A stretch of 64,000 nucleotides of DNA from Minisyncoccota bacterium. GTDB taxonomy: Bacteria > Patescibacteriota > Minisyncoccia > Phycocordibacterales > UBA6065. This document shows, in pieces, positions 6,251 through 51,590 of this stretch. The stretch is from NCBI GenBank assembly GCA_035438745.1, contig DAORIX010000001.1, forward strand, positions 3,075-67,074, read 5' to 3'. A program made the position numbers and the translations under genes. The notes beneath the pieces are model-generated. The model did not search any database, had not been told where the DNA came from, and saw only the letters and a list, made by a program, of their open reading frames with translations. The stretch's first letter is position 1, and every line of letters begins with the position of its first letter.

Positions 6251-6272
6251 CGATTTATTAAAACTACCACCT

Positions 6273-13107: not shown

Positions 13108-13228
13108 ACTTCTTGTATCTCTATAAATACTGCTAATAATGTCTCATTATTATAGATGACACGTGAGCATATAACAATGTGCACAAATACACAGAAAACA
13201 TCCACCCGTTAAGGTGGATGTTTTCATG

Positions 13229-29253: not shown

Positions 29254-31455
29254 CTAAGGATTTCTGCCCGCCTCAATTTCTTTTATGTAATACTCACCTT
29301 GCTCTTTGAATGTAGGATCTTTCGCAATAACTTCTCTGATGGTAGCAACCGCACTTCTACGATCACCAGAAGCGAGAAATGTTGCTGCATACTGAAGTCT
29401 GTATTGATTGTTTGATGGGTCTGTATCTAGTCGCTTCTTCCACAAAGCAAGCGCTCGTGACCACTGTTTTGTATCAGTATACGCCCTGATGAGACGATCG
29501 TCCGTAACGAGTGTAGTGCCGTACTTTGACTCAAGCGTTTCTTCTGCTTTTTGCACGTCACCAGAATAAATTGTAGCAATAACATAGTACATAAACGCAT
29601 CTTCATTTCGCACCTCGATCTCGTACGCACGCTTAAACACCTCGAGCGCTTTCGCATAATCTTGCTTCTGCAAATAGAGATTGCCCAACTGATAGAGAAT
29701 ACTCTGTTTGTTTGGAGAAAGTTCGGATGCGCGCAGTGTGTACTTGAGAGCATCGTCAAAAAGACCGTAGTAAGAATAAAATGTTCCTGTAAAAAGCTGA
29801 TAGCGGGCATCGTCAGGAGTATGTTCAAGTTGTTTTGCGAGTTCCGCCTTACCGAGCTCAAAGAAATCCTGCTTCACATTAATCGGAGCAGTTGATGGAT
29901 TGATTTGGCTCACCGCCTCAATAATTCTCTCTCTAATTTCTGACTGACCAAGAGACTCTCTCTTGAGTGCGTCCTTGAAATCCACCACCGCAAGAGCGCC
30001 CATTTGTCCCGCATCCGTACCTAACTTTCTCAAAGCCTCAATAAGAGACCGAGATGCCGCATACGCCTTGAAGTTAACGAGATAAAGGATGACCACGAGC
30101 ATAACAACACAGGCCGGTAAAATGATTTGCTTAAAATCATCATCTCCCACTTCGGTGTCTACGCGTGAAAGTTTGTGAGAAGTTACCGCTACACGCCCGT
30201 GTATATATGCGAGCATAGTAACAAAGATCATGTAGCTCGTGAGATTGTCGAATACAAAAAAGTTATGTATGAAGTACGCAACAAAAAGTCCAGACATCAC
30301 ACTTTTTTCTGTAAATGAAAATGTTTCCTCGGAAGACTTCCACAAACTCCACAGTGCGCTACCGAACAAAAAGAGATACGCAAGGAGACCGAAAATACCT
30401 CCTGCTATAAGCCAATCAAATACAACATTGTGAGTACGATCAAACCACTGTTCCTGAGCATACATACCCGGATTGTAGTATTTGTTAAAAACATAGCTGA
30501 AATTTTCCTGACCCCATCCTAGAATCGGGCGCTCCTTGAAACCTTGCCATGCCATATCCCACACCATAAAACGCGACTTAGTAGTTCCATCATTAAGCGA
30601 GATCGAGGCAAAGCGCGAGAGAACAGGACTTTCGCGAACAAAAGAGGTATTTTTAATGGCCAAGAAACCAAGAACCGTAGCAATACCCAAGCCTAAAATA
30701 ACTCCACAACTAATACGAAGCACTTTATTTTTTCTTTCAAAAATGAGCACGAGAAGAGTCGTCACGCCTATACCCCCAATGAGACCCAAAATCGCACCTC
30801 GAGTTGCGGTGTGATAGAGAATAAATACAAAGAAAAGAGCGAGCACGCTGTATGCATAACCCCATTTCTTTTTCATATCTGTAAAAGAACGCGCCGCAAA
30901 CATTCCTGCAATAAAAATGTTGAAAATCATGTACACCGCGAGATACGTTGCATTGCCGAACGTCGCATCAACACGCACACCTCCTTGATTGATAGTGAAT
31001 TTTCCAAGAAGTTGAGCCACGCCATACAATCCAATACAGAGAGTTGTTCCGAGATATACATTGAGTAGTCGATCCCAAAGTGTTCTTGAAAGCAAAACAC
31101 ATCCAGCCACTACGAAATATACATAGAGATGAAGTATGGTGATGAACCCTTCCATACGCTCATAGTTTGACCAGAATGCCTTGAATGCATTCGGCGCAAA
31201 AGAGTCAGCAATACCAATAATGAGCACGAAGGCAGTAAACGCCCACAAAATGAGAGATTTTTTCGGGCGATACGTGACATCTCTGAGTGCGAGCGCTAAC
31301 CACGCCACGCCAATGATCTCAACAATAATTCTAAATAAAAAATTCTTTCCGGTAATAAAAGGAAAAAACAAACTTCCTGTAACTACAAAAGGAATAAAAG
31401 GAACGGTGAATAAACCGCCCAGAATTATAAAACGCAGAATTTTCTTGAGATTCAT
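29254..31455 (-). CDS. Wzy_C (O-antigen ligase/polymerase-like) polytopic membrane domain fused to C-terminal TPR repeats (paralog 2)
   Basis: About 12 TM helices with Wzy_C-like periplasmic loop (RTHNVVFDWLIAGGIFG) then a 280 aa TPR array (AIEALRKLG..., ALEVFKRAYEIEVRNEDAF...). Confidence 0.75.
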   Translation of the reverse strand: MNLKKILRFIILGGLFTVPFIPFVVTGSLFFPFITGKNFLFRIIVEIIGVAWLALALRDVTYRPKKSLILWAFTAFVLIIGIADSFAPNAFKAFWSNYERMEGFITILHLYVYFVVAGCVLLSRTLWDRLLNVYLGTTLCIGLYGVAQLLGKFTINQGGVRVDATFGNATYLAVYMIFNIFIAGMFAARSFTDMKKKWGYAYSVLALFFVFILYHTATRGAILGLIGGIGVTTLLVLIFERKNKVLRISCGVILGLGIATVLGFLAIKNTSFVRESPVLSRFASISLNDGTTKSRFMVWDMAWQGFKERPILGWGQENFSYVFNKYYNPGMYAQEQWFDRTHNVVFDWLIAGGIFGLLAYLFLFGSALWSLWKSSEETFSFTEKSVMSGLFVAYFIHNFFVFDNLTSYMIFVTMLAYIHGRVAVTSHKLSRVDTEVGDDDFKQIILPACVVMLVVILYLVNFKAYAASRSLIEALRKLGTDAGQMGALAVVDFKDALKRESLGQSEIRERIIEAVSQINPSTAPINVKQDFFELGKAELAKQLEHTPDDARYQLFTGTFYSYYGLFDDALKYTLRASELSPNKQSILYQLGNLYLQKQDYAKALEVFKRAYEIEVRNEDAFMYYVIATIYSGDVQKAEETLESKYGTTLVTDDRLIRAYTDTKQWSRALALWKKRLDTDPSNNQYRLQYAATFLASGDRRSAVATIREVIAKDPTFKEQGEYYIKEIEAGRNP

Positions 31456-31556: not shown

Positions 31557-32327
31557 CTACGAAGAAAGCCCTAACCTAACTGCTTCTCTTTGCATGGCTG
31601 AGACGATATCTGTGCGTTGTTTGTCACGTTTGGACCTCATCGACTCATCATCCTCAATGAGTTGTTCAACTGGATGGACGTAGTCAACGATTACGGAATC
31701 GATGGCTACACCCCCTGTCAGAAACCACAAAAGTGGTATGAACAGGATTTCCCAATTATCACCATAGTGTATCGGTTGATATGCCGCCATTATCATGGCG
31801 GCCTGCCGATTCATGATCCGCGGTCCGATATAAAAATCAATATCGAACCTTTTTGTGATATTGCCAAGCTCCCAATTGGCCCTCAGTTCAGACCAATGCT
31901 GATACTGAGGATACCCATCGAGATTCCGTCGCCGTGGTATGACCACATCGGTAGCGCCCCTCATTACTCGCGCAATGCACGGACCAAGCAAGGGGACAAG
32001 CGTGTATTTTTCCGGCTCAAGCCAGACAAGTACCTCTGCTTCTGTCGCGAGACCAGCATTGAAACATTCGCGACGCGACTGTCCCATACCCGGCTTTTCC
32101 TGATCAATAACGGTTGCTCCAGTTTCCCGGAGAGCTTGTTTGAACTCTTCGCACGGACTACCGTCAATGACGATAATCGGATAATCGTTGTCTCGAGCAG
32201 TACGACACGTTTTAAGTGCCAGCTGTGCTCGGACCTCATCCACGCTTTTGATAAACGTGGTGGTTACCAACACTATTCGATCGTTCACAATTACCTTTCT
32301 TTTGATTATTTTAAGAACTAACCTCAA
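31557..32327 (-). CDS. hypothetical protein, possibly a divergent GT-A fold (GT2-like) nucleotide-sugar transferase; GC-rich relative to neighbours
   Basis: Pattern IVLVTTTF..(30)..PIIVIDGSP..ETGATVI..GMGQSRRECFNAGL..VLVWLEPE parallels the GT2 core, with EPE where DxD is expected. The minus strand is chosen over the antisense 234 aa ORF because the terminator is downstream on the minus strand. Confidence 0.3.
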   Translation of the reverse strand: MRLVLKIIKRKVIVNDRIVLVTTTFIKSVDEVRAQLALKTCRTARDNDYPIIVIDGSPCEEFKQALRETGATVIDQEKPGMGQSRRECFNAGLATEAEVLVWLEPEKYTLVPLLGPCIARVMRGATDVVIPRRRNLDGYPQYQHWSELRANWELGNITKRFDIDFYIGPRIMNRQAAMIMAAYQPIHYGDNWEILFIPLLWFLTGGVAIDSVIVDYVHPVEQLIEDDESMRSKRDKQRTDIVSAMQREAVRLGLSS

Positions 32328-32421: not shown

Positions 32422-32670
32422 ATGGTAGAAGAAATAAAACCCAACGCCGTCTATACGACAGAGGAAACAAGACAAGTCCTCCGTATTAGTGACAGCACCA
32501 TTAAGAGACTCCTCAAAAAAGGACTCCTGCGTGCAAACAAAGTTGGAGGACAATACAGAATCATGGGAAAAGAAATTTTACGAGTGGTCTCCCCTGATCT
32601 CGAGAAAGAAGCCGTAAAGTCATACCTCTCTCTCAAGAAAAAAGTAATAAAAAAAATAAACAAATGGTAA
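32422..32670 (+). CDS. excisionase/MerR-like helix-turn-helix DNA-binding protein (HTH_17-type)
   Basis: [38 protein letters not shown] matches the excisionase-family HTH. Stop overlaps the gmd start. An alternative start at 32398 lies inside the promoter spacer. Confidence 0.6.
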
Positions 32671-33761
32671 AATCTAATCCTATGGCCAAAAAACAAAAAA
32701 CAAAAACTAAGAAAGCTCTCATTACCGGAATTACAGGCCAAGACGGTTCTTACCTTGCTGAACTTCTCCTTGAGAAAGGTTATGAAGTCTATGGACTCAT
32801 CAGACGCGCCTCAACATTCAATACCTCTAGAATAGATCACCTTTTCCAAGATCCCCACACAAAAAACAAAAAACTCATACTCTTGTATGGAGACCTCTCT
32901 GACTCGAGCAACCTCTCGCGAATTATTGAAAAAGTAAAGCCAGATGAAATCTACAACCTAGGCGCACAAAGCCATGTCCGCGTCTCTTTTGATATGCCTG
33001 AGTACACCGCTGATGTTGATGCGGTTGGCACATTGCGACTCCTTGATGCAATACGAGAAACAGGAGTAAAAACAAAATTCTACCAAGCATCATCCTCAGA
33101 AATGTATGGAAAAGTTATGGAGGTACCTCAGACAGAAACAACCCCCTTCTACCCCCGATCACCCTATGCAGTTGCAAAAGTATTTGCTTATTGGATTACA
33201 AAAAACTACCGAGAGGCGTACAACCTATTTGCAGTAAATGGAATTCTCTTTAACCACGAATCTCCTCGTCGAGGAAAAACTTTTGTAACGAAAAAAATCA
33301 CTCGCGGACTATCGCGCATCAAGCTTGGTATTGATGAAAAGATGTATCTCGGAAATCTCGACGCGAAGCGTGACTGGGGTTACACAAAAGACTATGTATA
33401 TGGAATGTGGCTCACCCTTCAACAAAAAAAACCGGATGACTACGTACTCGCCACAGGAGAAACACATTCTGTACGAGAGTTTATAGAAGAATCTGCGAAA
33501 TGCCTCGATATCGATCTCGTCTGGAAAGGAAAAGGAGTTGATGAAAAAGGAATTGATAAGAGAACAGGAAAAACAATCATAGAGATTGACCCTGCGTATT
33601 TTCGCCCAGCTGAAGTAGACCTCCTTATTGGAGATGCATCAAAAGCCAAAAAAGAACTGGGTTGGAAACCTACCGTTGATTTTAAAGGTCTCGTAAAAAT
33701 GATGTGTGAATACGACCTTGAGGAAGAAACTCAAAACAAACAAAATCTCGCACGAAAATAA
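32664..33761 (+). CDS. gmd: GDP-mannose 4,6-dehydratase
   Basis: [33 protein letters not shown]-terminus, catalytic SSSEMYG...Y..AK, GME-unrelated long loop; start 32664 or 32682. Confidence 0.9.
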
Positions 33762-33762
33762 C

Positions 33763-34692
33763 ATGAATAAAAATTCAAAAATTTATATAGCCGGCCATTT
33801 AGGACTTGTAGGATCAGCTATTTTGAGAAAGCTCAATAAAGAAGGCTACACAAACCTCATTACAAAATCTCGTAAAGAGCTTGACCTTACTGATCAAAAA
33901 GCAGTGAAAGATTTTTTTGAAAAAACAAAGCCCGAATATGTATTTCTTGCCGCGGCAAAGGTGGGTGGAATTATGGCAAACAAAACCTACCCTGGAGAAT
34001 TTATTTCCGAAAATCTCGACATCCAAAATAATATAATAAAAAACTCCTACATCCACGGAGTAAAGAAACTGTTGTTTCTTGGAAGTTCGTGTATATACCC
34101 AAAACTAGCTACCCAGCCAATAAAGGAGGAGTATTTTATGACGGGTCCCCTTGAGCCAACAAATGAGGCGTATGCGATTGCAAAAATTGCAGGAATTTCA
34201 ATGTGCCAGTCATACCGAAAACAATATGGAGCTGATTTCATATCACTCATGCCGACAAATCTCTATGGACCGGGCGACAACTTCACGAACGAAAGAGGTC
34301 ATGTGATTCCGGCACTCATTAGAAAATTTCATGATGCAAAAGCCAAAAATCTTGACGAGATATCAGCATGGGGCACAGGATCAGCAAAACGAGAATTTTT
34401 ACACTCGGATGATTTAGCTGATGCGTGTGTGTTCCTCATGAAGAATTACTCCTCGGGAGATATTATAAACGTTGGTACAGGCGAAGACGTCACTATCAAA
34501 GAACTCACCGAAAAAATTAGCAAGATCGTTGGCTTTAAAGGAAAAATTGTCTGGGACACCACAAAACCAGACGGTGCTCCCCGAAGACTACTTGATGTAG
34601 AAAAACTTCACACCCTAGGTTGGAAACACCACATAGAACTCGAAAAAGGTCTTGAAGAAACCTATGAGTGGTTCAAAAAAAATGTCATCTAA
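33763..34692 (+). CDS. fcl: GDP-L-fucose synthase family (GDP-4-keto-6-deoxy-D-mannose 3,5-epimerase/4-reductase; Fcl/WcaG, or a ColC-type paralog)
   Basis: [19 protein letters not shown] Rossmann start, [18 protein letters not shown] blocks; start at MNKNSK (33763) abuts the gmd stop. Confidence 0.8.
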
Positions 34693-34696
34693 AAAA

Positions 34697-35911
34697 ATGA
34701 AAAAAGGTAAAAAAAATACAGCAGTACCCTACAAAGTACCCCTCATGAAAAATGCTTTTATTGAGGAAAAGAGCGTCAGGGCAAAACTCTCACAATTTGT
34801 TCTCACTGCCCCACGCCTCAGTATGGATTTACAATGCGCTCAGTTTGAAAAAACGTTCGCGAAAAAACAGGGTCGAAAATACGCGATTTTATTCAACAGC
34901 GGAGGAAGCGCAAACCTCGCAATGATACAAGCGCTCAAAAACTTAGGCGCACTCAAGGACAATGACAAAGTAGGCTTCTCTGCTGTTACCTGGTCAACAA
35001 ATGTTATGCCCATCCTACAAATGGGACTTGGTGCCGTTCCTATCGACTGTGACCCCACCACACTCAACTCAATGAGCCATTGTGCCTTACCCCGACTTGA
35101 ACAAGAAAAGTGTAAAGCCTTTTTTATAACCAACGTACTAGGTTTTTCTGGTGATCTCGATGTAATCGAAAAAGAATGTGCAAAAAAAGGAATTATAGTA
35201 CTCGAGGACAACTGTGAATCACTTGGCACCGTGCTCCATACAGGAAAGACGGGTAATTTTAGTCTTGCATCAAGTTTTTCTTTTTTTGTTGCCCACCATA
35301 TGTCAACAATTGAAGGAGGCATGGTGTGTACAGACGATCACGATTTTGCAGAAATGCTCAAAATAGTTCGAGCTAATGGTTGGGATAGAAATCTCCACCC
35401 AAAGAGACAAAAACACTGGCGCAAGAAACATGAAGTAGAATCTTCTTTTCACGCAAAATACACTTTTTATGACCTCGGCTTTAACTTACGTCCTACTGAA
35501 ATAACTGGTTTTATTGGACTCAATCAACTTCCCCACCTCGATAAAACTATCAAAATTCGTGAAAAGAATTTCAAAAAAATATACGCACAAATATTAAAAA
35601 ATGATGATTTTCTAAAAATCTCACACGATCACCTCAAAACCATTTCTGCTTTTGCAATACCTTTCATATGTAAAACACCGGAGCTCAGAAAAAAATATAT
35701 CAAAATATTCAACGATGCAGGAGTTGAGATTAGACCAATGATTGCTGGAAATATGCAAAAGCAACCATTCTCGAAAAAATACACGTCAAAAACATTTGAT
35801 CTTCCTGGTGCTGATGTATTGCACGACAATGCTTTTTATTGTGGAAATTGTCCCGACTACACGCCTGCGGAGATAGAAATCATTTTAAATTGTATAATAA
35901 AAGGAAAATAA
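34697..35911 (+). CDS. DegT/DnrJ/EryC1-family PLP enzyme with His replacing the Schiff-base Lys: ColD/E1-like sugar 3-dehydratase candidate
   Basis: Fold-type I aminotransferase blocks (FEKTFA..KYAILFNSGGSANL, GDLD..IVLEDNCESLG). Where the family has SFxxxK....GEGG the sequence reads SFFVAHHMSTIEGG. Confidence 0.6.
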   Translation: MKKGKKNTAVPYKVPLMKNAFIEEKSVRAKLSQFVLTAPRLSMDLQCAQFEKTFAKKQGRKYAILFNSGGSANLAMIQALKNLGALKDNDKVGFSAVTWSTNVMPILQMGLGAVPIDCDPTTLNSMSHCALPRLEQEKCKAFFITNVLGFSGDLDVIEKECAKKGIIVLEDNCESLGTVLHTGKTGNFSLASSFSFFVAHHMSTIEGGMVCTDDHDFAEMLKIVRANGWDRNLHPKRQKHWRKKHEVESSFHAKYTFYDLGFNLRPTEITGFIGLNQLPHLDKTIKIREKNFKKIYAQILKNDDFLKISHDHLKTISAFAIPFICKTPELRKKYIKIFNDAGVEIRPMIAGNMQKQPFSKKYTSKTFDLPGADVLHDNAFYCGNCPDYTPAEIEIILNCIIKGK

Positions 35912-35912
35912 T

Positions 35913-36737
35913 ATGGAAACTCCCGTAACAATACTCCGCCCAAAAAAAACCATCACCCTAAACGACCTCAAAGAACTCTGGCGCTACCGTGAGCTTCTTT
36001 ATTTTTTTACATGGCGCGATCTCAAAGTTCGATATAAACAAACCCTTATTGGTGCACTGTGGGCTATACTTCAACCTCTCGTTACGATGGTCATCTTTAC
36101 TGTATTTTTTGGTAAGTTGGCACAAATGCCATCTGACGGAGTTCCGTATCCAATCTTTGTTTACGTCGGTCTCCTTTTCTGGCAATTTTTTTCGAGCGCT
36201 CTCTCAGAAACATCTAATGTTCTTATTTCAAACCAAGCAATCATAACCAAAGTTTACTTTCCTCGCCTCATCTTGCCGTTATCGTCAGTACTTACCAAAT
36301 TTGTTGATTTTGCAATTGCATCTCTCATCCTTATTGGAATGATGGTCTATTACGGATATACGCCCCACCTTCTAGGGATTTTCATCATTCCTCTCCTTCT
36401 CCTCATTACCTTCATGGCTGCTGTTGGTAGTGGTCTATGTTTAGCATCAGTAAACGTTAAGTACCGAGATGTTAGATATGCTCTGCCCTTTTTTATACAA
36501 ATACTCCTTTTCCTTACCCCAGTTATTTATCCCGCATCAATTGCAGGCAACTATTCATGGCTCCTGGCGCTTAATCCAATGACGGGGGTAATTCAATCTG
36601 CTCGAGCGGCTCTCCTCGGAACAACACCAATCAACTGGCTCCTTCTCGCTATTTCATCCTTGGCGTGTTTGTGTCTTCTTATTATTGGTGGTATCTATTT
36701 CAAAAAAATAGAACGCTATTTTGCAGATATTTTATAA
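35913..36737 (+). CDS. wzm: ABC-2 type polysaccharide export permease (Wzm/TagG/KpsM family)
   Basis: 274 aa, 6 TM, N-terminal RELLYFFTWRDLKVRYKQTLIGALWAILQP signature of Wzm permeases. Confidence 0.8.
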   Translation: METPVTILRPKKTITLNDLKELWRYRELLYFFTWRDLKVRYKQTLIGALWAILQPLVTMVIFTVFFGKLAQMPSDGVPYPIFVYVGLLFWQFFSSALSETSNVLISNQAIITKVYFPRLILPLSSVLTKFVDFAIASLILIGMMVYYGYTPHLLGIFIIPLLLLITFMAAVGSGLCLASVNVKYRDVRYALPFFIQILLFLTPVIYPASIAGNYSWLLALNPMTGVIQSARAALLGTTPINWLLLAISSLACLCLLIIGGIYFKKIERYFADIL

Positions 36738-36741
36738 AAAA

Positions 36742-38001
36742 ATGGAACCCATAATTGAAGTAAAAAATGTCGGTAAAAAATACAACATAAAGCACTACCA
36801 AGGTGGCTATGTTGCGTTGCGTGATGTGATCATGAATATAGTCAAAAACCCTTTTCGCTTTGCAAAAGAAAAAGCAAAAGCAGTCACAGGAATAGGAACA
36901 AAGGAAGAGTTCTGGGCGCTCAAAGAAGCAAGCTTTAACATTTTCCAAGGAGAAGTGGTTGGAATCATCGGAAGAAATGGGGCCGGAAAATCAACTCTCC
37001 TCAAAATACTGACTGGCATTACACCTCCTACAACAGGAGAAATAAAAATGCGCGGTAGAGTCGCTTCCCTTCTTGAAGTCGGTACGGGGTTCCATCCAGA
37101 ACTTACTGGCCGAGAAAACATATTCCTCAACGGTGCAATTCTCGGAATGAAAAAAAGTGAAATCGCAAAAAACTTTGACTCGATTGTTGCGTTTGCTGAA
37201 ATAGAAAAATTCCTCGATACCCCAGTAAAATACTACTCAAGTGGAATGTATGTCCGTCTCGCCTTTTCAGTAGCCGCGCACATGGAACCAGACATACTCC
37301 TCGTGGATGAAGTACTCGCTGTGGGTGATGCAGAATTCCAAAAAAAGTGCCTTGGAAAAATGGAAGAGGTTACCAAGAAACAAGGCCGTACCATACTCTT
37401 TGTGAGTCACAACATGGCAGCAATTCAAAATCTCTGTAAAAAATGCATCCTCTTAGAAAAAGGAAAAATCAAAGCGGTTGGTGACACAGAAGACATTGTA
37501 AACCTCTACCTCCACAATTCCGAGTCAGAGGCAACAGAAAAAAAATGGGAGGGAGACAAGCGTCCAGGAAATGATGTTGTACGACTAAACCATGTTCGTC
37601 TTGTTGATGAAAATAAAGAAACCACGAGCTTTGTCTACTCAAATAAAAAATTTGGATTAGAAATATCCTACGAGGTTCTCAAATCTGGTTTTGCACCTCT
37701 TCCCAATGTTCACTTTTTCACAAATAAAGGGGAATATGCATTTATTAGCCACGCTGACGTAAAAGAAGAAAATGATAAAGTAGGAAAACACACGAAAACT
37801 GTGTGGGTCCCCGGAAATCTCCTTAATGAAGGTACCTACTCAATCGGTGTTGCTCTTTCAACTATGATTCCGCTCAACATACACCTCTATGAAAGAGAGC
37901 TTATTGTGTTCCAAGTGCTTGAGGATATTCACAGTGCAAAGAAACACGACTTCAATGTGCGTATACCGGGAGTTGTCCGCCCTCGACTAGTATGGGAATA
38001 A
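36742..38001 (+). CDS. wzt: polysaccharide ABC exporter ATP-binding protein with C-terminal carbohydrate-binding (Wzt_C-like) domain
   Basis: Walker A GRNGAGKST, signature YSSGM, Walker B LLVDEVLAVGD; an extra about 170 aa beta-rich C-terminal domain as in Wzt. Confidence 0.8.
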   Translation: MEPIIEVKNVGKKYNIKHYQGGYVALRDVIMNIVKNPFRFAKEKAKAVTGIGTKEEFWALKEASFNIFQGEVVGIIGRNGAGKSTLLKILTGITPPTTGEIKMRGRVASLLEVGTGFHPELTGRENIFLNGAILGMKKSEIAKNFDSIVAFAEIEKFLDTPVKYYSSGMYVRLAFSVAAHMEPDILLVDEVLAVGDAEFQKKCLGKMEEVTKKQGRTILFVSHNMAAIQNLCKKCILLEKGKIKAVGDTEDIVNLYLHNSESEATEKKWEGDKRPGNDVVRLNHVRLVDENKETTSFVYSNKKFGLEISYEVLKSGFAPLPNVHFFTNKGEYAFISHADVKEENDKVGKHTKTVWVPGNLLNEGTYSIGVALSTMIPLNIHLYERELIVFQVLEDIHSAKKHDFNVRIPGVVRPRLVWE

Positions 38002-38010
38002 CAAAAATCA

Positions 38011-38667
38011 ATGCTCAAAAAAATATACTATTCGATAAGAAACAAGATCCTAAAATATAAAATGGGATCTTACCCTGTGTGGAATATCTACGAGGGGCAC
38101 TTTAAAACGACGTACCGTTCTATACCGATGTTAAAATGCCCTTTTGACTATGTTATGTATCAAATGATTGTGTCAAAGATACAACCAGATCTCATTATTG
38201 AAATCGGAACAAACGTGGGAGGAACAACCTTATACCTGGCTGACATCCTCAACACCCTTGGCAAAGGAGAGATCCACACAATAGATATCGATGATCGAGT
38301 TAATCCCCTAGCACGATCTCATCCACGCATAAAATGCTTTAACGGCGGATGGAAAAACTACGATCTTTCAAATACAAAAAAATTCTCAAAGATACTCGTC
38401 ATTGATGATGCGTCGCATCAATTTAAAGACACATTAGAAGCAATGGAGAAGTTTTCGAACGTCGTGTCTATTGATTCTTATTTAATCATAGAGGACGGTA
38501 TTGTTACTCAACTCAAAAGAGACAAACAACTTGATGGAGGACCTCTTCGGGCAATAGAAAAATTTCTTGAAACAAACAACAACTTCCTCGTTGATGACTC
38601 TTACTGCAATATGTTTGGTAAAAACGCAACCTTCAACACGAAAGGTTACCTAAAAAGAGTTAAATAA
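38011..38667 (+). CDS. CmcI-family (cephalosporin hydroxylase-like) SAM-dependent sugar O-methyltransferase
   Basis: LIIEIGTNVGGTTLYLADIL SAM-binding block and overall CmcI/rhamnosyl-O-MT layout. Confidence 0.7.
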   Translation: MLKKIYYSIRNKILKYKMGSYPVWNIYEGHFKTTYRSIPMLKCPFDYVMYQMIVSKIQPDLIIEIGTNVGGTTLYLADILNTLGKGEIHTIDIDDRVNPLARSHPRIKCFNGGWKNYDLSNTKKFSKILVIDDASHQFKDTLEAMEKFSNVVSIDSYLIIEDGIVTQLKRDKQLDGGPLRAIEKFLETNNNFLVDDSYCNMFGKNATFNTKGYLKRVK

Positions 38668-38668
38668 A

Positions 38669-39538
38669 ATGGCCAAAGTTTTTATCGGTATGCCTGTATA
38701 TAATGGTGAGCACTTCCTAAAAGAAGCCCTCGACTCTCTGTGTTCGCAGACATATTCTAATTGGAATATGCATATCTCTGATGATGGTTCCACCGACTCT
38801 ACCGAAGCGATTTGTCGCCTCTATGTAGAAAAAGACAAACGTATAACCTACTACCGCCAGCCAAAAAATATCGGTATGTTTGAGAATTTTAAATACACCC
38901 TAGAGAAATCAAACTCGGAATATTTTATGTGGGCAGCCCAAGATGATCTCTGGGAAAAAACATTTCTTGAAACATGCGTCTCGATTCTCGACAATGATAC
39001 TCGCGTTGGACTTGCCGGAACCACAATCGCTGAAATAGACTCTTATGGAAGAACCGCTCGTGAACTACTCTCACTGGAAAAACTTTCTGGTAAACCAAGT
39101 GTAAAAACAATTACCCACTACGTTCTCGAACCAGAAATACTTGGAAGGTGTAACATTATGTATGGCCTCTGGAGAACCGCCGCCATAAAAGAAACATGGA
39201 AAGCGTATCCCCAACGATCTGTCTGGGGACAGGACTACATGTTTGTACTGGCAGGTATTTCGCGTTTTGGCGTAAAGATTGATAACAAGACACTATTCAA
39301 AAAAAGACTTGGTGGATACTCGAGTCCCGATGCGACAAAAAATGACGCGCCCGGAGAGACACAAAAACGTACCATTACCAACCCCAAAGACTATATTTTC
39401 CCCCTTGGAAGGTTTAATGTTTACTTTAAGGGCCACATGGAAGCGTTACGAGGTACGCCCTATCAACCTCTCGCTGCAGTACTCTTATTAGCAAGGCTCC
39501 CTCGGGCATTATGGAATCATTTTAAACAAACACCATGA
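38669..39538 (+). CDS. family 2 glycosyltransferase
   Basis: IGMPVYNGEHFLKEALDSLCSQTY..ISDDGSTD GT-A N-terminus and DxD region. Confidence 0.8.
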   Translation: MAKVFIGMPVYNGEHFLKEALDSLCSQTYSNWNMHISDDGSTDSTEAICRLYVEKDKRITYYRQPKNIGMFENFKYTLEKSNSEYFMWAAQDDLWEKTFLETCVSILDNDTRVGLAGTTIAEIDSYGRTARELLSLEKLSGKPSVKTITHYVLEPEILGRCNIMYGLWRTAAIKETWKAYPQRSVWGQDYMFVLAGISRFGVKIDNKTLFKKRLGGYSSPDATKNDAPGETQKRTITNPKDYIFPLGRFNVYFKGHMEALRGTPYQPLAAVLLLARLPRALWNHFKQTP

Positions 39539-40419
39539 TCATCGTAAAACTTTCAGGCGGTTTAGGAAATCAACTCTTTCAATATGCCTTCGCACGTGCT
39601 GTATCAAAAAAACTCAATACAGATTTTAAGCTTGATGCGACACCTTTTGAGACGTACTACAAACTCCACAAATATGCACTCAATCACTTTAATCTTACTG
39701 AAAAATTAGCGAAAAGAAGCGATATGTTTGGTTTTGTTTGGATACGAGAACGTCACAAATTTTTTGACACTTTTTATAGATACCTCCGACTCAAAAGCAA
39801 ACTTATGCCTTTTTACTATCCTGAGCAACGATTTGATTTTGATCCCAATGTGTTTAAAAAAGACAACATGTACTTTGACGGCTTTTGGCAAACAGAAAAA
39901 TATTTCAAAAATATCGAGAACGAACTCAAAGAAGAAATGACTCTCAAAAAGCCACTTTCTCCGTATAGTCAGTCTGTACTCGATCAAATACAAAAAACCA
40001 ATGCTGTTTGCCTCCACATACGACGTGGCGACTATGTCACCAATGCAAGCACGAACGCAGTTCACGGTACCTGTTCACTTGAATACTACGAACGCGCCAT
40101 CAAATACATATCCGAGAAAGTAGACTCTCCTCATTTTTTTATATTCTCAGATGATTATCCTTGGGCGGTAGAGAATTTTAAAAATCGACCCTACCCTGTT
40201 ACGTGTATTTCAAATGGTGCTGACAAAAACTACGAAGACCTGACTTTAATGTCTCACTGTAAACACTTCATCATCGCCAATTCAAGCTTTAGTTGGTGGG
40301 GTGCATGGCTTTCAAGAAACACAGACAAAATTGTAATTGGTCCAAAAGAGTGGTTTAAAAGCAAAAAAACAACGGTCAGCACTGATGACGTGATTCCTTC
40401 CTCGTGGATAAAAATGTAA
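39535..40419 (+). CDS. GT11 alpha-1,2-fucosyltransferase family protein
   Basis: GT11 motif I GGLGNQLFQYAFARA and motif II HIRRGDY, plus the C-terminal NSSFSWWGAWL block. Confidence 0.8.
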   Translation: MIIVKLSGGLGNQLFQYAFARAVSKKLNTDFKLDATPFETYYKLHKYALNHFNLTEKLAKRSDMFGFVWIRERHKFFDTFYRYLRLKSKLMPFYYPEQRFDFDPNVFKKDNMYFDGFWQTEKYFKNIENELKEEMTLKKPLSPYSQSVLDQIQKTNAVCLHIRRGDYVTNASTNAVHGTCSLEYYERAIKYISEKVDSPHFFIFSDDYPWAVENFKNRPYPVTCISNGADKNYEDLTLMSHCKHFIIANSSFSWWGAWLSRNTDKIVIGPKEWFKSKKTTVSTDDVIPSSWIKM

Positions 40420-40423
40420 ACAT

Positions 40424-42175
40424 ATGTGTGGAATACTCGCTATAACAGGGAAAAATACAAAAAAAATCGAGGATACAACTATCTCGAGCATGCTTTCTAC
40501 TCTCTCAAAACGAGGTCCTGATGAAAGTAGTTTCGAAAGAATAGGTCCTACGGTTCTTGGCCAAACAAGACTTGCTATCGTTGATCTCTCCGGTGGGCAC
40601 CAACCCATGCGTGACAACAAAGACAATCTTACACTCGTATTTAACGGTGAAATATATGGATATAAAGAAACTCGTGAAATCCTAGAGAAACGAGGTCATG
40701 TATTCTCAACTCACTCTGACACCGAAGTTATTCTCAAGGCATATTCAGAGTATGGAAAAGACTGTGTACTTCATCTCGATGGTATGTTTGCTTTTGCATT
40801 ATGGGACGAAACAAAACAAGAGCTTTTCGTGGCACGCGATCGTTTTGGCAAAAAACCCCTGTACTACACCTCTGTCGACCAGACCTTTTTTGCCGCTTCT
40901 GAAATAAAAACACTCTTTGCGACAGGGATTATTAAAGGAGAAATCGATCCTTCTGCACTCGATGACTATTTGCGTCTTATGTACATCCCTTCATACAAAA
41001 GTATCTATAAAAACATCGGGGTACTTCCCCCTGCACATGCGGGTATTGTTAAAAACGGCGCACTTGAAACATGGCAATACTGGAAATTAGAAAAAGCACC
41101 GTGTGAGGACTCCTACGAAGAAGCTAAAACAAAAATAAAAAAACTATTCAGTGATGCAGTAAAAAAAAGAATGGTCGCCGATGTTGAAGTTGGCTCACTC
41201 CTCTCAGGTGGAGTTGATTCGACAATCGTAACCCACGAGGCGCAAAAATACATGAATCGACCTATAAAAACTTTTGCGGTCGGGTACGGCACACACAAAA
41301 ACGAGCTCCCTTTTGCGAAAATTGCATCAGAAAAAATAGGCAGTGACCACTACACCCTCACTACTGAAGATTTTAATATGGAAGGTTTCCTTGAGGTTGT
41401 TGCGTACTTTGACGAACCCCATGCTGACTCATCGAACTACCCGCAGTCCTTTGTTTCAAAACTCGCTTCTTCAAAAGTGAAAGTCGCGCTTTCCGGTGAT
41501 GGCGCGGATGAATTTTTTATGGGTTATGGTTGGTACCAAAAGTACTGGCACACCCCTCTCCTTAAAAAAATATTCACCACTCCTTGGAGATCCTATACAG
41601 ACGTGATCGAAGTCTTCAAAACAAAAGACAGAAAAGGGCTTCTTGGTGCACAGAAAAACAACAAGGCTTTTGAAAAAAACGCTCTCAAAAACGCAAAAAA
41701 CAACACCGAAAAAATAAATGATTTTGACATACACATATACCTTCCTGGACAGCTACTATCAAAAGTAGACCGAACAAGCATGATGCACTCCTTGGAAATC
41801 AGATCCCCTTTTCTAGATACAAAACTTGCAGAATATGTCTACAATCTCCCTACTGCTTTTAAAATATCTAAAAATGCAAATAAAATAATACTCAAAGACA
41901 TCCTGTCTGAAACCTTTCCGAAAGATTTTGTTTACAGAAGGAAACAAGGCTTTGGTGCACCGATAGGAGCATGGCTCTCAAAAGAAGATCTACAAAAAAA
42001 ACTTGCCGAGATATTTAGTAACCAAAAACACCCGATGTTTAGTTATATAAAGTACGACAAAGCCTTACAAATCAAAGAAAAGGCTTTTCAGAATATGAAA
42101 ACATATGCCCCTCGATTGTGGTCATTGTTTTGTCTCGCTCTGTGGTTCGAACAACATCACAAACACCATGAATAA
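40424..42175 (+). CDS. asparagine synthase (glutamine-hydrolysing)-like amidotransferase
   Basis: N-terminal MCGI Ntn-glutaminase nucleophile; PP-loop SGGVDS in the synthetase domain; 583 aa. Confidence 0.8.
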   Translation: MCGILAITGKNTKKIEDTTISSMLSTLSKRGPDESSFERIGPTVLGQTRLAIVDLSGGHQPMRDNKDNLTLVFNGEIYGYKETREILEKRGHVFSTHSDTEVILKAYSEYGKDCVLHLDGMFAFALWDETKQELFVARDRFGKKPLYYTSVDQTFFAASEIKTLFATGIIKGEIDPSALDDYLRLMYIPSYKSIYKNIGVLPPAHAGIVKNGALETWQYWKLEKAPCEDSYEEAKTKIKKLFSDAVKKRMVADVEVGSLLSGGVDSTIVTHEAQKYMNRPIKTFAVGYGTHKNELPFAKIASEKIGSDHYTLTTEDFNMEGFLEVVAYFDEPHADSSNYPQSFVSKLASSKVKVALSGDGADEFFMGYGWYQKYWHTPLLKKIFTTPWRSYTDVIEVFKTKDRKGLLGAQKNNKAFEKNALKNAKNNTEKINDFDIHIYLPGQLLSKVDRTSMMHSLEIRSPFLDTKLAEYVYNLPTAFKISKNANKIILKDILSETFPKDFVYRRKQGFGAPIGAWLSKEDLQKKLAEIFSNQKHPMFSYIKYDKALQIKEKAFQNMKTYAPRLWSLFCLALWFEQHHKHHE

Positions 42176-46242: not shown

Positions 46243-47007
46243 ATGAAACAGAAACTTAAAACAATTCCCCTCTTGAAATATCTTGTGGTTGTCGCAAGGG
46301 TTTTCATAATTAAACCTAATTTTCTAAAACGAACATATGCACTTGCTGTATTTCTCAGTGATTACAGAAAGTACAAAAAACTTGAAAAAAATAATACGTA
46401 CCTCTTACAAACAACAGACCTTTTTCCCCGAATATACGACAAGACGGCGAACACTGATGTAGATCCTGTGTACTACCTCCAAGGATGTTGGTGTGCAAAG
46501 AAAATATTTGAAAACAAGCCCACTCGGCACTACGATATAGCCTCTCAAGCTCTTATGGTGGGTATTATCTCTCAATACGTACCAACAACAATGATTGATA
46601 TACGCCCTCTCTCAGTAACCCTACCTGAGCTCTCATTTATAAAGGGAGACATAACACATCTCCCTTTTAAGGACGGAGAAATATCGTCTGTCTCATCGAT
46701 ATGCGTTATTGAACACATAGGACTTGGACGCTATGGTGACCCTCTTGATCAGTTTGGTACCGAAAAAGCGGCACATGAACTTACTCGGATTTTAGCTAAA
46801 AACGGAAACCTCTATATTTCTGTACCCGTAGATAGTATTAATAAAACATACTTCAATGCACACCGGGCATTCACCAGAGAGTATGTGCTTTCCTTGTTTA
46901 AAAACCTACATCTCAAGGAAGAAAAGTACATCTATGGAAAAGAAATACATACATCGTATGATCCACGCAAAGGGTTCGGAACAGGCCTCTATCACTTCAG
47001 CAAATAA
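46243..47007 (+). CDS. class I SAM-dependent methyltransferase (DUF268-like)
   Basis: DIRPL..GDITHLPFKDGEISSVSSICVIEHIGLGRYGDP..NGNLYISVPV block; start at MKQKLK avoids overlap with the upstream GT2. Confidence 0.6.
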   Translation: MKQKLKTIPLLKYLVVVARVFIIKPNFLKRTYALAVFLSDYRKYKKLEKNNTYLLQTTDLFPRIYDKTANTDVDPVYYLQGCWCAKKIFENKPTRHYDIASQALMVGIISQYVPTTMIDIRPLSVTLPELSFIKGDITHLPFKDGEISSVSSICVIEHIGLGRYGDPLDQFGTEKAAHELTRILAKNGNLYISVPVDSINKTYFNAHRAFTREYVLSLFKNLHLKEEKYIYGKEIHTSYDPRKGFGTGLYHFSK

Positions 47008-47011
47008 TCAC

Positions 47012-47932
47012 ATGAAAAAAGTCATCATACTTAAAAACGGAGGTGGTGAACTTGCAAATCAATTATGGAACTACATAAGCATCTATGCGTATGGCATCGA
47101 AAAAAATAGATCCATAAAAAATCCTTCTTTTTTTGAATACCACTCGTATTTCAACTTCATAAAAGACGAGAGTGTTCTGACAAAATTCTTTTCTTTTTGG
47201 TTCAAAAATTTCTCAGGAAGACGCAGCAGCTTTCGTAGCCAACTATGGCGAAAGGTATATATTCTCTACGTATACACGCTGACTTTGTTCAACAAAAAAA
47301 ACACCATTTCTTCTGAAAACACAAAAGGAGAAAAAGTATACCTCTCGCCAACACAGGAATCTGTACCCGATGAAAACATCCAGACGCTCTACTTTACGGG
47401 GTGGCTCTTTAGAAACCCGCTCGGATTAGAAAAACATAGACAAAATATTGTGAAGGCATTTGCACCGGAAGAATCTATCACAAAAAAAGTAACTTCGATT
47501 ATACGCGACATAGACAATCGCTATGGAACAATAATCGGTGTACATATCCGCCAAGCAGATTACGCGTTCTTTAAAGATGGCAAATACTTACTGACCCAAG
47601 AAAGGGTACGAAAAGTTATTGACGAATATTGTGTGGCAAAAAATATACAAGTAGACAAAACCCTTTTTCTTATTACATCAGATGGACCCGTGCAAGAAAA
47701 TATATTTAAAGGACTCAACATTCATATCTCCAAAGAAAAAGCAGTGATTGATCTTTTCCTTCTCTCAAGTTGTGATGAAATTCTAGGTTCAGATTCGAGT
47801 TTTGGCGCCTTTGCCTCATGGTACGGCAACATACCCCACATCATCATGACAAAAGAAAACATGGACTGGGAATACTACAAAGACAAAACTACCTTCTTCC
47901 AAAATAAATACTCGACACTCGCCCATTACTAA
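47012..47932 (+). CDS. second GT11-like (alpha-1,2-fucosyltransferase family) glycosyltransferase, divergent
   Basis: Motif I variant KNGGGELANQLWNY and motif II variant HIRQADY with C-terminal SDSSFGAFASWYG. Start at 47012; the upstream 156 nt of the ORF-track call overlaps the MT gene. Confidence 0.6.
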   Translation: MKKVIILKNGGGELANQLWNYISIYAYGIEKNRSIKNPSFFEYHSYFNFIKDESVLTKFFSFWFKNFSGRRSSFRSQLWRKVYILYVYTLTLFNKKNTISSENTKGEKVYLSPTQESVPDENIQTLYFTGWLFRNPLGLEKHRQNIVKAFAPEESITKKVTSIIRDIDNRYGTIIGVHIRQADYAFFKDGKYLLTQERVRKVIDEYCVAKNIQVDKTLFLITSDGPVQENIFKGLNIHISKEKAVIDLFLLSSCDEILGSDSSFGAFASWYGNIPHIIMTKENMDWEYYKDKTTFFQNKYSTLAHY

Positions 47933-48070: not shown

Positions 48071-48104
48071 AAAAACACCCGTACATACGGGTGTTTTTAT
48101 TTTA
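48071..48104. terminator. bidirectional rho-independent terminator between the plus-strand glycan operon and the convergent GME gene
   Basis: aaaaacacccgta-cata-cgggtgttttt with T-run on both strands. Confidence 0.6.
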
Positions 48105-49121
48105 CTTACGAGATTTTTTCTTTTTCAAAACCTTTTTTGTTTTTTGTGGTTTTGATTTTTTCTGCTTTTGTACCTGCTCATTAATCCATTCATATGTTTT
48201 TGCCATCCCCTCTTTAAGAGGCCGACTTGGAGCCCAGTTCAACTTTTCTTTGATAAGTCGATTGTCAGAGTTACGTCCACGCACTCCGAGTGGACCAGGC
48301 ACATGATTGAGGCGAACTTTTTTTCCAGCAATAGAACTTACCATATGAACGAGATCGTTTATCGATATCATTTCATCTGAGCCAATATTTACCGGACCTG
48401 TAAAATCAGATCTCATGAGGCGCTCAACACCCTCGAGACATTCATCGATATAGAGAAAAGATCGAGTTTGTTCTCCATCACCCCACACTTCAACAACACC
48501 CCCATCTTTTGCCTCAGCAACCTTGCGACATGTCGCAGCAGGTGCTTTTTCCTTTCCACCATTCCATGTGCCCTCTGGACCAAAAACATTATGAAAACGT
48601 GCAATACGCACATTCATACAATGATTTCGAGCATATGCCATAAAAAGTCTTTCGCTAAATATTTTTTCCCAACCATATTCACTATCAGGAGCTGCGGGAT
48701 AAGCCGACTCTTCACTACAATCTGGATTGTTAGGATCAACCTGATTACGCTCAGGATAAATACACGCGGATGAGGAGTAAAAAAGAGTGCCCACACCAAC
48801 CTTTCGTGCTTGTTCAGCAATATTAAGGTTGATTGTCGCCGAATTGTGCATAATATCGGCATCGTGATTTCCTGTAAAAATATAACCCGCTCCTCCCATA
48901 TCTGCCGCAAGCTGATACACACGATCGAAAGAACGATTGAGAACCTTTGCGCACACTTTAACATCTCTCAAATCACCTACGACAAATTCATTGGCCTTTG
49001 AAACACCGTACTCGGGTTTTTTTAGATCAACACCACGCACCCAATATCCATCTTTTCTGAGTTTGGTCACAAGATGATTTCCAATAAATCCACCGGCGCC
49101 ACACACAAGAGCTCTTTTCAT
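48102..49121 (-). CDS. GDP-mannose 3,5-epimerase (GME) homolog with Lys-rich C-terminal tail
   Basis: Extended SDR matching the GME pattern: GAGGFIGNHL, LAADMGGAGYI, SSSACIYPE, GPEGTWNGGKEKAPAA, WGDGEQTRSF..IDEC, PVNIGSDEM, PGPLGVRGRNSDNRLIKEKL. The last 22 aa are QKQKKSKPQKTKKVLKKKKSRK. Confidence 0.75.
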   Translation of the reverse strand: MKRALVCGAGGFIGNHLVTKLRKDGYWVRGVDLKKPEYGVSKANEFVVGDLRDVKVCAKVLNRSFDRVYQLAADMGGAGYIFTGNHDADIMHNSATINLNIAEQARKVGVGTLFYSSSACIYPERNQVDPNNPDCSEESAYPAAPDSEYGWEKIFSERLFMAYARNHCMNVRIARFHNVFGPEGTWNGGKEKAPAATCRKVAEAKDGGVVEVWGDGEQTRSFLYIDECLEGVERLMRSDFTGPVNIGSDEMISINDLVHMVSSIAGKKVRLNHVPGPLGVRGRNSDNRLIKEKLNWAPSRPLKEGMAKTYEWINEQVQKQKKSKPQKTKKVLKKKKSRK

Positions 49122-50764: not shown

Positions 50765-50771
50765 AGAAACT

Positions 50772-51590
50772 CTAGTGATAAAAAGGTGTGGTTTGAGAAA
50801 TATAATCAATCTGAAGACCCCTCTTAACCGCTACGAAATTTGTAAGAGTAAAGCGCTCTTGATCGGGGAAATACTCGACCCTCTCAAGAGAACGGGATTT
50901 CAAACGATACATATCGTACCCATACTGCTCAAAAAATCTCAAGAAGTCACGTAGAAAAAATCGAGACTCCAAAGTTGCCCCAGAAAATTCATACTGTACC
51001 ATGTCGACCATACCTTGTTTGAACATATTTTCTGCGCCTTTCAAAACAAAAAACTCATAACCCTCAACATCCACCTTCAAGAAATCTACATGGCGAATGT
51101 TGTGATCCTTTACATACTCATCGAGAGTAGTCACCTGAACCATAAGTGCTTTTTCTTTTTTATCTTGTTCGTGAATATCAAACAAAGAATTAAAAACCGT
51201 CTTTGAATGACGAAATAGTTGCATCTGGGTCTTTTTCTCACCCACTGCACAATTATTTAAAATGGCTCTTTTTTTAAAGTCCTTCGTATTCGTTTGTAAT
51301 TGATCAAACGCTCTCACGTCTGGTTCAAAAGCATGAACAACCACATCAGGATTGCTCGAGAGAATTTTTCTAGAGTAATCCCCTATATTCGCACCGACAT
51401 CAAAAACCACCTTTAGTTTTCCCTGTAATTTCTCGAGAAGCCAGTATTCACCGTTTGTCTCGCGGTCAAAAGCATTATCCCCATAACAAAAATCAATGTA
51501 TTTACTACAAAACAAAAAAAGCAGTCGAGAGTATCGTGGGTTATTGCGATTAATAAAAATCTTTACGAGGTTTTTTTTAAAAAAATTCAT
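50772..51590 (-). CDS. FkbM-family methyltransferase
   Basis: VFDVGANIGDYS SAM-binding block and FkbM-domain layout. Confidence 0.7.
   Translation of the reverse strand: MNFFKKNLVKIFINRNNPRYSRLLFLFCSKYIDFCYGDNAFDRETNGEYWLLEKLQGKLKVVFDVGANIGDYSRKILSSNPDVVVHAFEPDVRAFDQLQTNTKDFKKRAILNNCAVGEKKTQMQLFRHSKTVFNSLFDIHEQDKKEKALMVQVTTLDEYVKDHNIRHVDFLKVDVEGYEFFVLKGAENMFKQGMVDMVQYEFSGATLESRFFLRDFLRFFEQYGYDMYRLKSRSLERVEYFPDQERFTLTNFVAVKRGLQIDYISQTTPFYH

Follow-up and report, generated by a model that had tools for sequence, protein, structure and literature searches.

What does a sugar enzyme of the DegT/DnrJ/EryC1 family do when histidine stands in place of its Schiff-base lysine, and when its gene directly follows gmd and a reductase gene? 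The question is raised by a gene in the 64,000-nucleotide stretch of DNA analysed here (hereafter the window), which comes from an uncultured Candidatus Paceibacterota bacterium (Patescibacteria, candidate phyla radiation, CPR). We refer to its product as the ColD-like protein. The original prediction took it for a 3-dehydratase of the type of ColD (GDP-4-keto-6-deoxymannose 3-dehydratase) and E1, and its surroundings for a GDP-colitose gene set. Our comparison points to ColD: the protein is probably a pyridoxamine 5'-phosphate (PMP)-dependent, iron–sulphur (Fe-S)-independent ColD-type GDP-4-keto-6-deoxymannose 3-dehydratase, which would feed GDP-colitose into a surface glycan.

34697–35911, plus strand: predicted ColD-like, PMP-dependent sugar 3-dehydratase with the DegT fold (PF01041, ColD structure 2gms, Foldseek)
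35294–35296, plus strand: codon of His200, the equivalent of ColD His188 and E1 His220 (alignments, conservation)

The gene is an uninterrupted open reading frame (ORF), translated into 404 amino acids and closing at a stop codon. Its start is uncertain among three options: a TTG at 34652, which opens the mechanically listed ORF, an ATG at 34682, where a public database protein of 409 amino acids with 100% identity to the window protein begins, and the ATG at 34697, which had been chosen by the earlier reader. There is no obvious Shine-Dalgarno sequence or ribosome-binding site at these candidate starts, homologues align from approximately residue 13 onwards and the protein carries a Lys-rich N-terminal extension; the uncertainty has no effect on the histidine finding. 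The identical public protein is named 'DegT/DnrJ/EryC1/StrS family aminotransferase [Candidatus Paceibacterota bacterium]', a name that is uninformative because RefSeq also calls the authentic ColD of E. coli O55 a 'DegT… aminotransferase'. An antisense ORF of 160 amino acids inside the gene (34840–35322, minus strand) was put down to the mechanical way in which ORFs were listed.

A histidine at the Schiff-base position

The Schiff-base block of the ColD-like protein covers residues 193–208 (SFSFFVAHHMSTIEGG, encoded at 35273–35320), with the core block FSFFVAHHMSTIEG at 35276–35317, and its paired histidines are H200 (35294–35296) and H201 (35297–35299). In both HMMER and BLASTP alignments, VAHHMSTIEGG of the window protein pairs with YSHHIATMEGG of E. 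coli O55 ColD, and two mutant ColD chains, 3b8x (H188N, reading SNH) and 2r0t (H188K, reading SKH), fix the first histidine of the pair as the His188 position. H200 stands where ColD has His188 and E1 has His220, just as had been proposed from the sequence, and it takes the place of the Schiff-base Lys in the aminotransferase block S-x(4,5)-K...[ED]GG.

The same residue is found throughout the relatives of the protein. All 120 nearest homologues carry [VI]AHH, and among the 150 best 50%-identity cluster representatives, the best hits of an exhaustive HMMER search of 1.84 billion such representatives, 148 have His in the H200 column whilst the other two are gapped there. One poorly aligned fragment of 237 amino acids among the cluster representatives has Thr in that column, which gives His in 148 of the 149 representatives with a residue aligned there. 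A Lys at the Schiff-base position or close to it is missing from the ColD-like protein and from the ~270 relatives examined, and none of the relatives has one elsewhere in the active-site loop, whereas ordinary DegT aminotransferase paralogues in the loci fetched for comparison have Lys at the same position (e.g. SFFGNKTITTGEGG). Judged by these alignments, the exchange of Lys for His is a family trait, neither a chance nor a private event. What chiefly sets the nucleotide-sugar 3-dehydratases E1, ColD and SpnQ apart from the aminotransferases is this replacement of Lys by His (PMC8987622).

Comparison with ColD and E1

The protein matches Pfam PF01041 (DegT_DnrJ_EryC1) over residues 40–400 with 174.9 bits. 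Its best match among solved proteins is E. coli O55 ColD (2gms, 206 bits, 36% identity by BLASTP), with Yersinia E1 (3bcx) at 120 bits and GDP-perosamine synthase at 82 bits. A Foldseek search with an AlphaFold model (pLDDT, the predicted local distance difference test score, 74.5; pTM, the predicted template modelling score, 0.78) placed ColD chains at the top (TM 0.77–0.81), then perosamine synthase and E1. The equivalents of ColD Asp159, Glu162, Ser183, His188, Arg219, Asn248, Glu329 and Arg331 are conserved at 93–100%; we take these residues to be ligands of the cofactor and of the GDP phosphates, roles that are reportedly described in the ColD structure papers of Cook and Holden. The alignment against ColD and E1 that had been suggested as a check on the prediction confirms both the position of the histidine and these active-site equivalents.

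The likeness to ColD (WbdK of E. coli O55:H7; PDB 2GMS, 2GMU, 2R0T, 3B8X and 3GR9) comprises the DegT fold, the two histidines at the Schiff-base site, the motifs EDNCES, R-x-x-G-W-x-R-N, G-[FY]-N-x-R-P and E-x-R-P, the lack of an Fe-S motif, and a genomic position with gmd, an Fcl-family reductase and a family-11 glycosyltransferase (GT11). The window protein differs from ColD in having Ala for Ser187, the clade-specific cysteines C325, C382 and C399, and an Fcl-type partner. GDP-perosamine synthase (Per; PDB 3BN1 and 3DR4) has the same fold and uses the substrate of ColD, GDP-4-keto-6-deoxymannose, but unlike the window protein it keeps the catalytic Lys and transaminates, and the two share ~24% identity in the structural alignment.

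E1 (DdhC/RfbH/AscC; Y. pseudotuberculosis, PDB 3BCX and 3BB8) likewise has its His in an AHH motif and removes the C3 hydroxyl with the help of PMP, but, unlike the window protein, it is ~437 amino acids long, contains a Cys-rich insert and a [2Fe-2S] cluster, needs the reductase E3 and acts on a CDP-sugar. The cluster is present in E1 and SpnQ and not in ColD (PMC8987622). In the alignment with E1, the Cys-rich segment DCYCAPGCDNTC has no counterpart, the window protein having NLHPKRQKHWRKKH there with no cysteine, and no set of four cysteines is conserved in the lineage, as judged from the cysteine columns of the close homologues and of the wider lineage. An E1-like cluster or a Zn site had been suggested by a CGNC motif (C382/C385) and by several cysteines that are invariant in the close homologues; we rejected it, as C385 occurs in only 26% of the close homologues, C382, C325 and C399 are down to 20–53% in the wider lineage and the E1 insert is absent. 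By sequence and fold the protein appears ColD-like and not E1-like. The original description as a ColD/E1-type 3-dehydratase and not an aminotransferase is therefore supported, and can be narrowed to ColD, the nearest relative on both measures, since the Fe-S cysteine block of E1 is missing.

A separate and widespread lineage

The characterised ColD group consists of the enzymes of E. coli O55, Y. pseudotuberculosis and C. jejuni HS:5/HS:11, and such enzymes are 62–67% identical to each other (PMC10440746). We built a neighbour-joining (NJ) tree from 121 His-type sequences, with E1 as the root and 60 bootstrap replicates. In it, the common ancestor of the window lineage leaves out this canonical group in 59 of the 60 replicates and the converse holds in 56, with several more uncharacterised His-type groups falling between the two. 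The tree suggests that the window protein is not orthologous to the characterised ColD enzymes; no clustering with the perosamine synthase or other aminotransferase clades was seen.

The lineage is large. Thousands of proteins fell below E = 1e-20 in the homologue search with the ColD-like protein, and a scan by pattern, with each species represented by a single genome, recovered at least 570 species genomes with a locus of the lineage. It spans the Bacteroidota (Chryseobacterium, Flavobacterium, Mucilaginibacter, Ferruginibacter), Proteobacteria, Elusimicrobiota and Planctomycetota, and occurs also in Leptospira, Lentisphaerota and many Patescibacteria, yet no characterised member was found in the literature searched. 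The lineage is probably a divergent, uncharacterised and under-annotated branch of ColD-type dehydratases.

One ColD-like lineage, three reductase partners

The two genes upstream of the ColD-like gene follow in the order gmd, fcl, colD-like, so that the predicted position directly after gmd and a reductase of the Fcl/ColC family is correct.

32664–33761, plus strand: gmd, whose product supplies the ColD-like protein with its presumed substrate, GDP-4-keto-6-deoxy-D-mannose (TIGR01472 equivalog, 583.5 bits against a cutoff of 415; PF16363, 516 bits)
33763–34692, plus strand: predicted Fcl-clade GDP-L-fucose synthase (3,5-epimerase/4-reductase), assigned by identity to Fcl and by the NJ tree; the mechanically listed ORF starts at GTG 33706

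The window reductase, Fcl (GMER/WcaG) and ColC are all extended short-chain dehydrogenases/reductases (SDRs) that epimerise and reduce GDP-4-keto-6-deoxy sugars, and the question is which of them the window encodes. As reference we used E. coli O55:H7 CB9615 (locus L002 of our set), with its ColD, ColC, WbgN, Fcl and both gmd copies. The window reductase shares 55% identity with E. coli Fcl and 38% with the ColC of E. coli O55; for ColC against Fcl the figure is 39%. On the NCBIfam model for Fcl (NF047922, cutoff 500) the window reductase scores 495.7 bits, narrowly below the cutoff, compared with 304 bits for ColC and 400 bits for a reductase of a third clade described below. The window reductase keeps HVIPAL and another block of E. 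coli Fcl, conserved blocks in which Ser/Cys, Tyr/Lys and His are presumably the catalytic residues.

In an NJ tree, 82 reductases of the Fcl family encoded in the fetched loci fall into three groups. In the first (bootstrap 100), E. coli ColC is accompanied only by the reductases of five Elusimicrobia loci; a second (bootstrap 88) contains E. coli Fcl and all Patescibacterial copies, that of the window included, together with gmd-adjacent copies (L017, L025) and the second copies of L030 and L056, which are not adjacent to the ColD-like gene. Nearly all members of the third, 'ColD-coupled' group (clade 3; bootstrap 54 for the exact set) are encoded immediately upstream of the ColD-like gene. 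The phylogeny that had been proposed to separate Fcl from ColC therefore places the window reductase with Fcl and outside the ColC clade, and its identification as a ColC orthologue is rejected by the identities, the NCBIfam score and the tree. A second candidate for the missing ColC, the SDR encoded at 48102–49121, was also rejected, being a GDP-mannose 3,5-epimerase homologue and not a candidate 4-reductase. The claimed match to a GDP-colitose gene set thus holds for gmd, an Fcl-family reductase and GT11, all of which are present; the reductase is of the Fcl clade and not ColC, so that a colitose pathway here would need Fcl to take the 3-deoxy intermediate as substrate.

Gene context was counted in 80 related loci from many phyla. 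In 63 of 74 loci the next gene upstream of the ColD-like one encodes an Fcl-family SDR, often with a 4-nucleotide overlap. A single dehydratase lineage is found here with three reductase partners, ColC-type in Elusimicrobia, clade 3 in most phyla and Fcl in Patescibacteria. The ColC-type reductase is encoded immediately upstream in the Elusimicrobia loci L065, L071, L074 and L085 and ~1.3 kb upstream in L070, and is 52–56% identical to E. coli ColC; this pairing with true ColC-type enzymes is the strongest sign, if an indirect one, that the lineage carries out the ColD reaction on an intermediate derived from GDP-mannose. In three loci (L025, L030 and L056) an Fcl is present as well as a clade-3 reductase, and the retention of both implies different functions for them in those genomes.

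The window and its Patescibacterial relatives have only the Fcl-clade reductase, and the window has a single Fcl-family gene. Either this Fcl accepts the 4-keto intermediate in its 3-hydroxy as well as its 3-deoxy form, or a gene elsewhere encodes the last step; from the gene content we infer that one Fcl probably works for the fucose branch and the colitose branch alike. At 13 columns that discriminate between the reductase groups, the Patescibacterial Fcl proteins have the clade-3/ColC residue at only 3–4 (F173, A207, W272 and partly M280, numbered by E. coli Fcl positions 173, 207, 272 and 280). These shared residues may point, if weakly, to an enzyme adapted to a 3-deoxy substrate; convergence of the Patescibacterial Fcl on the ColD-coupled reductases was dropped as an explanation, the signature columns being too weak to use.

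A broader reading, which we put forward tentatively and as somewhat short of likely, is that the lineage may be an independent, widespread branch of His-type 3-dehydratases (at least 570 species genomes) that has recruited three lineages of reductase, with one Fcl-clade enzyme in Patescibacteria supplying both GDP-fucose and GDP-colitose.

The glycan island of the window

The ColD-like gene is the third of a co-directional run, within a glycan-biosynthesis island of ~33 kb (window ~29250–62015) with more than ten GT2, GT4 and GT11 genes.

29254–31455, minus strand: Wzy_C (O-antigen ligase-like) membrane protein with C-terminal tetratricopeptide (TPR) repeats (PF04932, 75.5 bits)
35913–36737, plus strand: Wzm-type ABC-2 permease for glycan export (PF01061, 66 bits; NCBIfam galactan Wzm/RfbD model below cutoff)
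36742–38001, plus strand: Wzt-type ABC ATPase with a C-terminal domain that binds the glycan terminus (PF00005 and PF14524, Wzt_C)
38011–38667, plus strand: methyltransferase of the CmcI/rhamnosyl O-methyltransferase family (PF04989, 111 bits)
38669–39538, plus strand: GT2 glycosyltransferase (PF00535, 93.8 bits)
39535–40419, plus strand: GT11a, family-11 transferase of the alpha-1,2-fucosyl/colitosyl type (PF01531, 125 bits)
40424–42175, plus strand: AsnB-type glutamine amidotransferase (TIGR01536, 477 bits)
46856–47932, plus strand: GT11b, a second, weaker GT11-like transferase (PF01531, 29 bits)
48102–49121, minus strand: GDP-mannose 3,5-epimerase homologue, 339 amino acids (342 bits to Arabidopsis GME, 2c59)

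The run starts with gmd, fcl and the ColD-like gene and proceeds through wzm, wzt, the CmcI-type methyltransferase, GT2, GT11a and the AsnB-type gene to further GT4 and GT2 genes, a DUF268 methyltransferase and GT11b, whose start is probably near 47015, since its ORF as listed shares sequence with the gene before it. The opposite strand carries the GDP-mannose 3,5-epimerase homologue and more glycosyltransferases, and the island also contains a GT2-methyltransferase fusion (49208–50809, minus strand) and a PMT_2 protein (51587–52966, minus strand). The CmcI-type methyltransferase is possibly a modifier of the chain end that is read by Wzt. The epimerase homologue suggests, by its sequence similarity, a GDP-L-galactose branch in the same island; with fucose and colitose branches beside it, the island could supply three L-galacto-configured GDP-sugars.

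The gene set of the window is syntenic in other Patescibacteria. The Wzy_C/TPR protein, which flanks the island upstream, is syntenic in L006/L007, and orthologues of the AsnB-type protein with 50–57% identity occur in L006, L024, L028, L032, L048 and L052, whilst in some of these bacteria (L006, L008, L014, L024, L028, L045 and L052) the ColD-like gene has been relocated to a position directly before GT11a. Locus L008 (contig CAZLHP010000004.1), labelled 'uncultured Candidatus Saccharibacteria', has the same cluster, its proteins being 95–99% identical to those of the window; either the label Saccharibacteria for L008 or the label Paceibacterota for the window protein is probably imprecise. 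Over the 80 loci, gmd lies within 10 kb of the ColD-like gene in 28 and Wzt is present in 30. GT11 follows the ColD-like gene immediately in 29 of 71 loci and lies within 10 kb of it in 43 of the 80.

One or both of the GT11 enzymes of the window had been proposed as possible colitosyltransferases, a suggestion that gains comparative support for GT11a and none for GT11b. GT11a is 33% identical to WbgN, the colitosyltransferase of E. coli O55, and 44% identical to the GT11 directly after the ColD-like gene in L003, and proteins with GT11a as their best reference match (42–63% identity) fill the slot downstream of the ColD-like gene in many loci. WbgN is itself of the PF01531 type, with a RefSeq annotation as alpha-1,2-fucosyltransferase. 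It is an alpha-1,2-colitosyltransferase whose natural donor is GDP-colitose and which tolerates GDP-fucose (PMC12723683). These similarities make GT11a a reasonable candidate for a colitosyltransferase. GT11b is 24.5% identical to GT11a over 200 amino acids, and the one close relative found for it, an orthologue with 48% identity, is in L052; its PF01531 match is weak.

Several features of the window lie apart from these genes. Just upstream of gmd, two ORFs on opposite strands (31557–32327, minus, and 31617–32321, plus) overlap almost fully, and the 256-amino-acid product of the minus-strand ORF has no Pfam match. Elsewhere we found a bacterial class A RNase P RNA (13228–13584, minus strand, 116 bits), two tRNA genes (5746–5818 and 6180–6251, both minus strand) and, at the window edge, a protein of 612 amino acids (62155–63993, minus strand) with weak domains of TrwB/VirD4-type coupling proteins of type IV secretion.

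The proposed pathway and its alternatives

In the pathway that we regard as probable, Gmd would convert GDP-mannose to GDP-4-keto-6-deoxy-D-mannose, with whose C4 keto group the PMP of the ColD-like enzyme would form a Schiff base (ketimine); His200 would take the C4' proton, the C3 hydroxyl would be expelled, and the ene-amine would be released and hydrolysed to GDP-4-keto-3,6-dideoxy-D-mannose and ammonia, L-glutamate regenerating PMP from pyridoxal 5'-phosphate (PLP). This follows the dehydration mechanism of ColD and E1 as reviewed in PMC8987622. The Fcl-clade enzyme would then epimerise C5 and reduce C4 to give GDP-L-colitose (3-deoxy-L-fucose), and the same enzyme would turn the undehydrated intermediate into GDP-L-fucose; GT11a, and possibly GT11b, would attach the L-sugars to a glycan that leaves the cell through the Wzm/Wzt ABC transporter.

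Several observations weigh against this pathway. Identity between the window protein and E. coli ColD is only 36% by BLASTP and 32% over the trimmed multiple alignment, and, as the protein belongs to a separate lineage, its function is transferred across a deep split. The catalytic His is preceded by Ala, like that of E1, and not by Ser187 as in ColD, and the AlphaFold model is only moderate, with low confidence around the active-site loop (residues 198–205). No curated model names the window protein, NCBIfam having no model for ColD. The reductase of the window is of the Fcl type, neither ColC nor the clade 3 that is usual in other phyla, and in the literature searched we found no report of an Fcl accepting the 3-deoxy intermediate that ColD produces. 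Finally, there is no manC or manB within the window.

The alternative that fares best keeps the same 3-dehydratase chemistry and changes the end product, the substrate being another GDP-4-keto-6-deoxy sugar, such as GDP-6-deoxy-4-keto-heptose, or the product being reduced with a different stereochemistry to another GDP-3,6-dideoxyhexose. There is precedent for it in C. jejuni, where ColD homologues dehydrate GDP-heptose and different C4 reductases lead to different 3,6-dideoxy products (PMC10440746). These GDP-6-deoxy-4-keto-heptose 3-dehydratases of C. jejuni HS:5/HS:11 resemble the window protein as PLP/PMP-dependent enzymes of the ColD type that act on a GDP-4-keto-6-deoxy sugar, followed by epimerase and C4-reductase steps (PMC10440746), and differ from it in belonging to the canonical ColD group, in their heptose substrate and in having the epimerase and the reductase separate. 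Within the lineage itself, most members pair with clade-3 reductases, which may have a stereochemical outcome of their own, and in Sediminibacterium sp. (L005/L012) the cassette of reductase, ColD-like gene and GT11 is followed by genes for an SDR, a GHMP kinase and a nucleoside triphosphate (NTP) transferase (10089–12765 in L005). These genes resemble the activation route of GDP-heptose, and some members of the lineage may accordingly act on heptose substrates. For the window itself we consider a different product unlikely: gmd is directly adjacent, no heptose gene (GHMP kinase or NTP transferase) is among its ORFs, the reductase belongs to the Fcl clade, so that an L-galacto-type reduction to colitose is the default expectation, and the elusimicrobial relatives pair with true ColC-type enzymes.

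That the protein is a reductive 3-dehydratase of the E1/SpnQ type, acting on a CDP- or dTDP-4-keto-6-deoxyhexose with an external electron donor, is very improbable. Its best NCBIfam match is indeed RfbH/E1, the Joint Genome Institute (JGI) names several relatives E1 ('CDP-6-deoxy-D-xylo-4-hexulose-3-dehydrase'), and in its AHH motif, as in that of E1, the His follows an Ala; however, the match to that equivalog (NF011936) reaches 195.4 bits, far under the cutoff of 423, and authentic E. coli ColD, at 262.8 bits, is likewise under it. Added to this are the lower score against E1 than against ColD (120 and 206 bits) and the absence of the Fe-S cysteine block and of any conserved four-Cys site. 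No cytidylyltransferase/NTP-transferase and no second (CDP-glucose) 4,6-dehydratase are among the ORFs of the window, and no E3-like gene turned up in it, although no search was aimed at E3. Real E1-type genes with such partners co-occur with the lineage in other genomes. Genes of ~440 codons in L010 (5052–6368), L017 (4685–6007), L020 (6911–8569), L053 (1939–3282) and L070 (111–1415) sit a few kb from the ColD-like gene, four with the exact Yersinia E1 motif SFYPAHHITMGEGG and the L070 copy with SFYPAHHITTGEGG, and those of L010, L017, L020 and L053 have their own nucleotidyltransferase and 4,6-dehydratase genes beside them. Because both dehydratases co-occur in L010, L017, L020 and L053, the ColD-like and E1-type enzymes are not redundant, and these four loci and L070 may encode two separate routes to 3,6-dideoxyhexoses.

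The least probable reading, a sugar aminotransferase (e.g. like GDP-perosamine synthase) or an inactive relic, could appeal to the NCBI product name, to GDP-perosamine synthase being the third-closest solved family and to the transamination that SpnQ performs under forcing conditions (PMC8987622), but neither the protein nor its ~270 relatives have a Schiff-base Lys, the same generic name is carried by authentic ColD, and a relic is at odds with the intact ORF and with cofactor- and phosphate-binding positions that are invariant across phyla.

Implications for CPR bacteria and for the family

We return to the ColD-type dehydratase that feeds a GDP-colitose branch. To our knowledge, colitose has so far been known from Gram-negative lipopolysaccharide, and no paper linking it to CPR or Bacteroidota organisms was found in the literature searched; within that literature, the window is the first indication of a colitose-type branch in CPR bacteria. 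The chemistry and the pathway logic are textbook, with no new kind of chemistry or system, and the comparison of reductase partners is modestly interesting: three partners in the lineage and a single Fcl in genome-reduced cells would amount to a natural experiment on how fucose and 3-deoxy-fucose are partitioned. The compact cassette of reductase, ColD-like gene and GT11 would also be a possible source of colitose donors and transferases for glycoengineering.

If the assignment is right, a 3,6-dideoxyhexose branch in hundreds of genomes, now labelled 'aminotransferase' or 'E1', has been systematically under-annotated across Bacteroidota, Proteobacteria, Elusimicrobiota, Planctomycetota, Leptospira and Patescibacteria. 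The surface glycans of CPR bacteria probably mediate attachment to the host and are essentially unstudied. The range of colitose-type sugars would be extended to these bacteria, and, on the broader reading in which one Fcl supplies both GDP-sugars, a CPR cell would display colitose on a glycan exported by Wzm/Wzt, together with fucose and possibly L-galactose.

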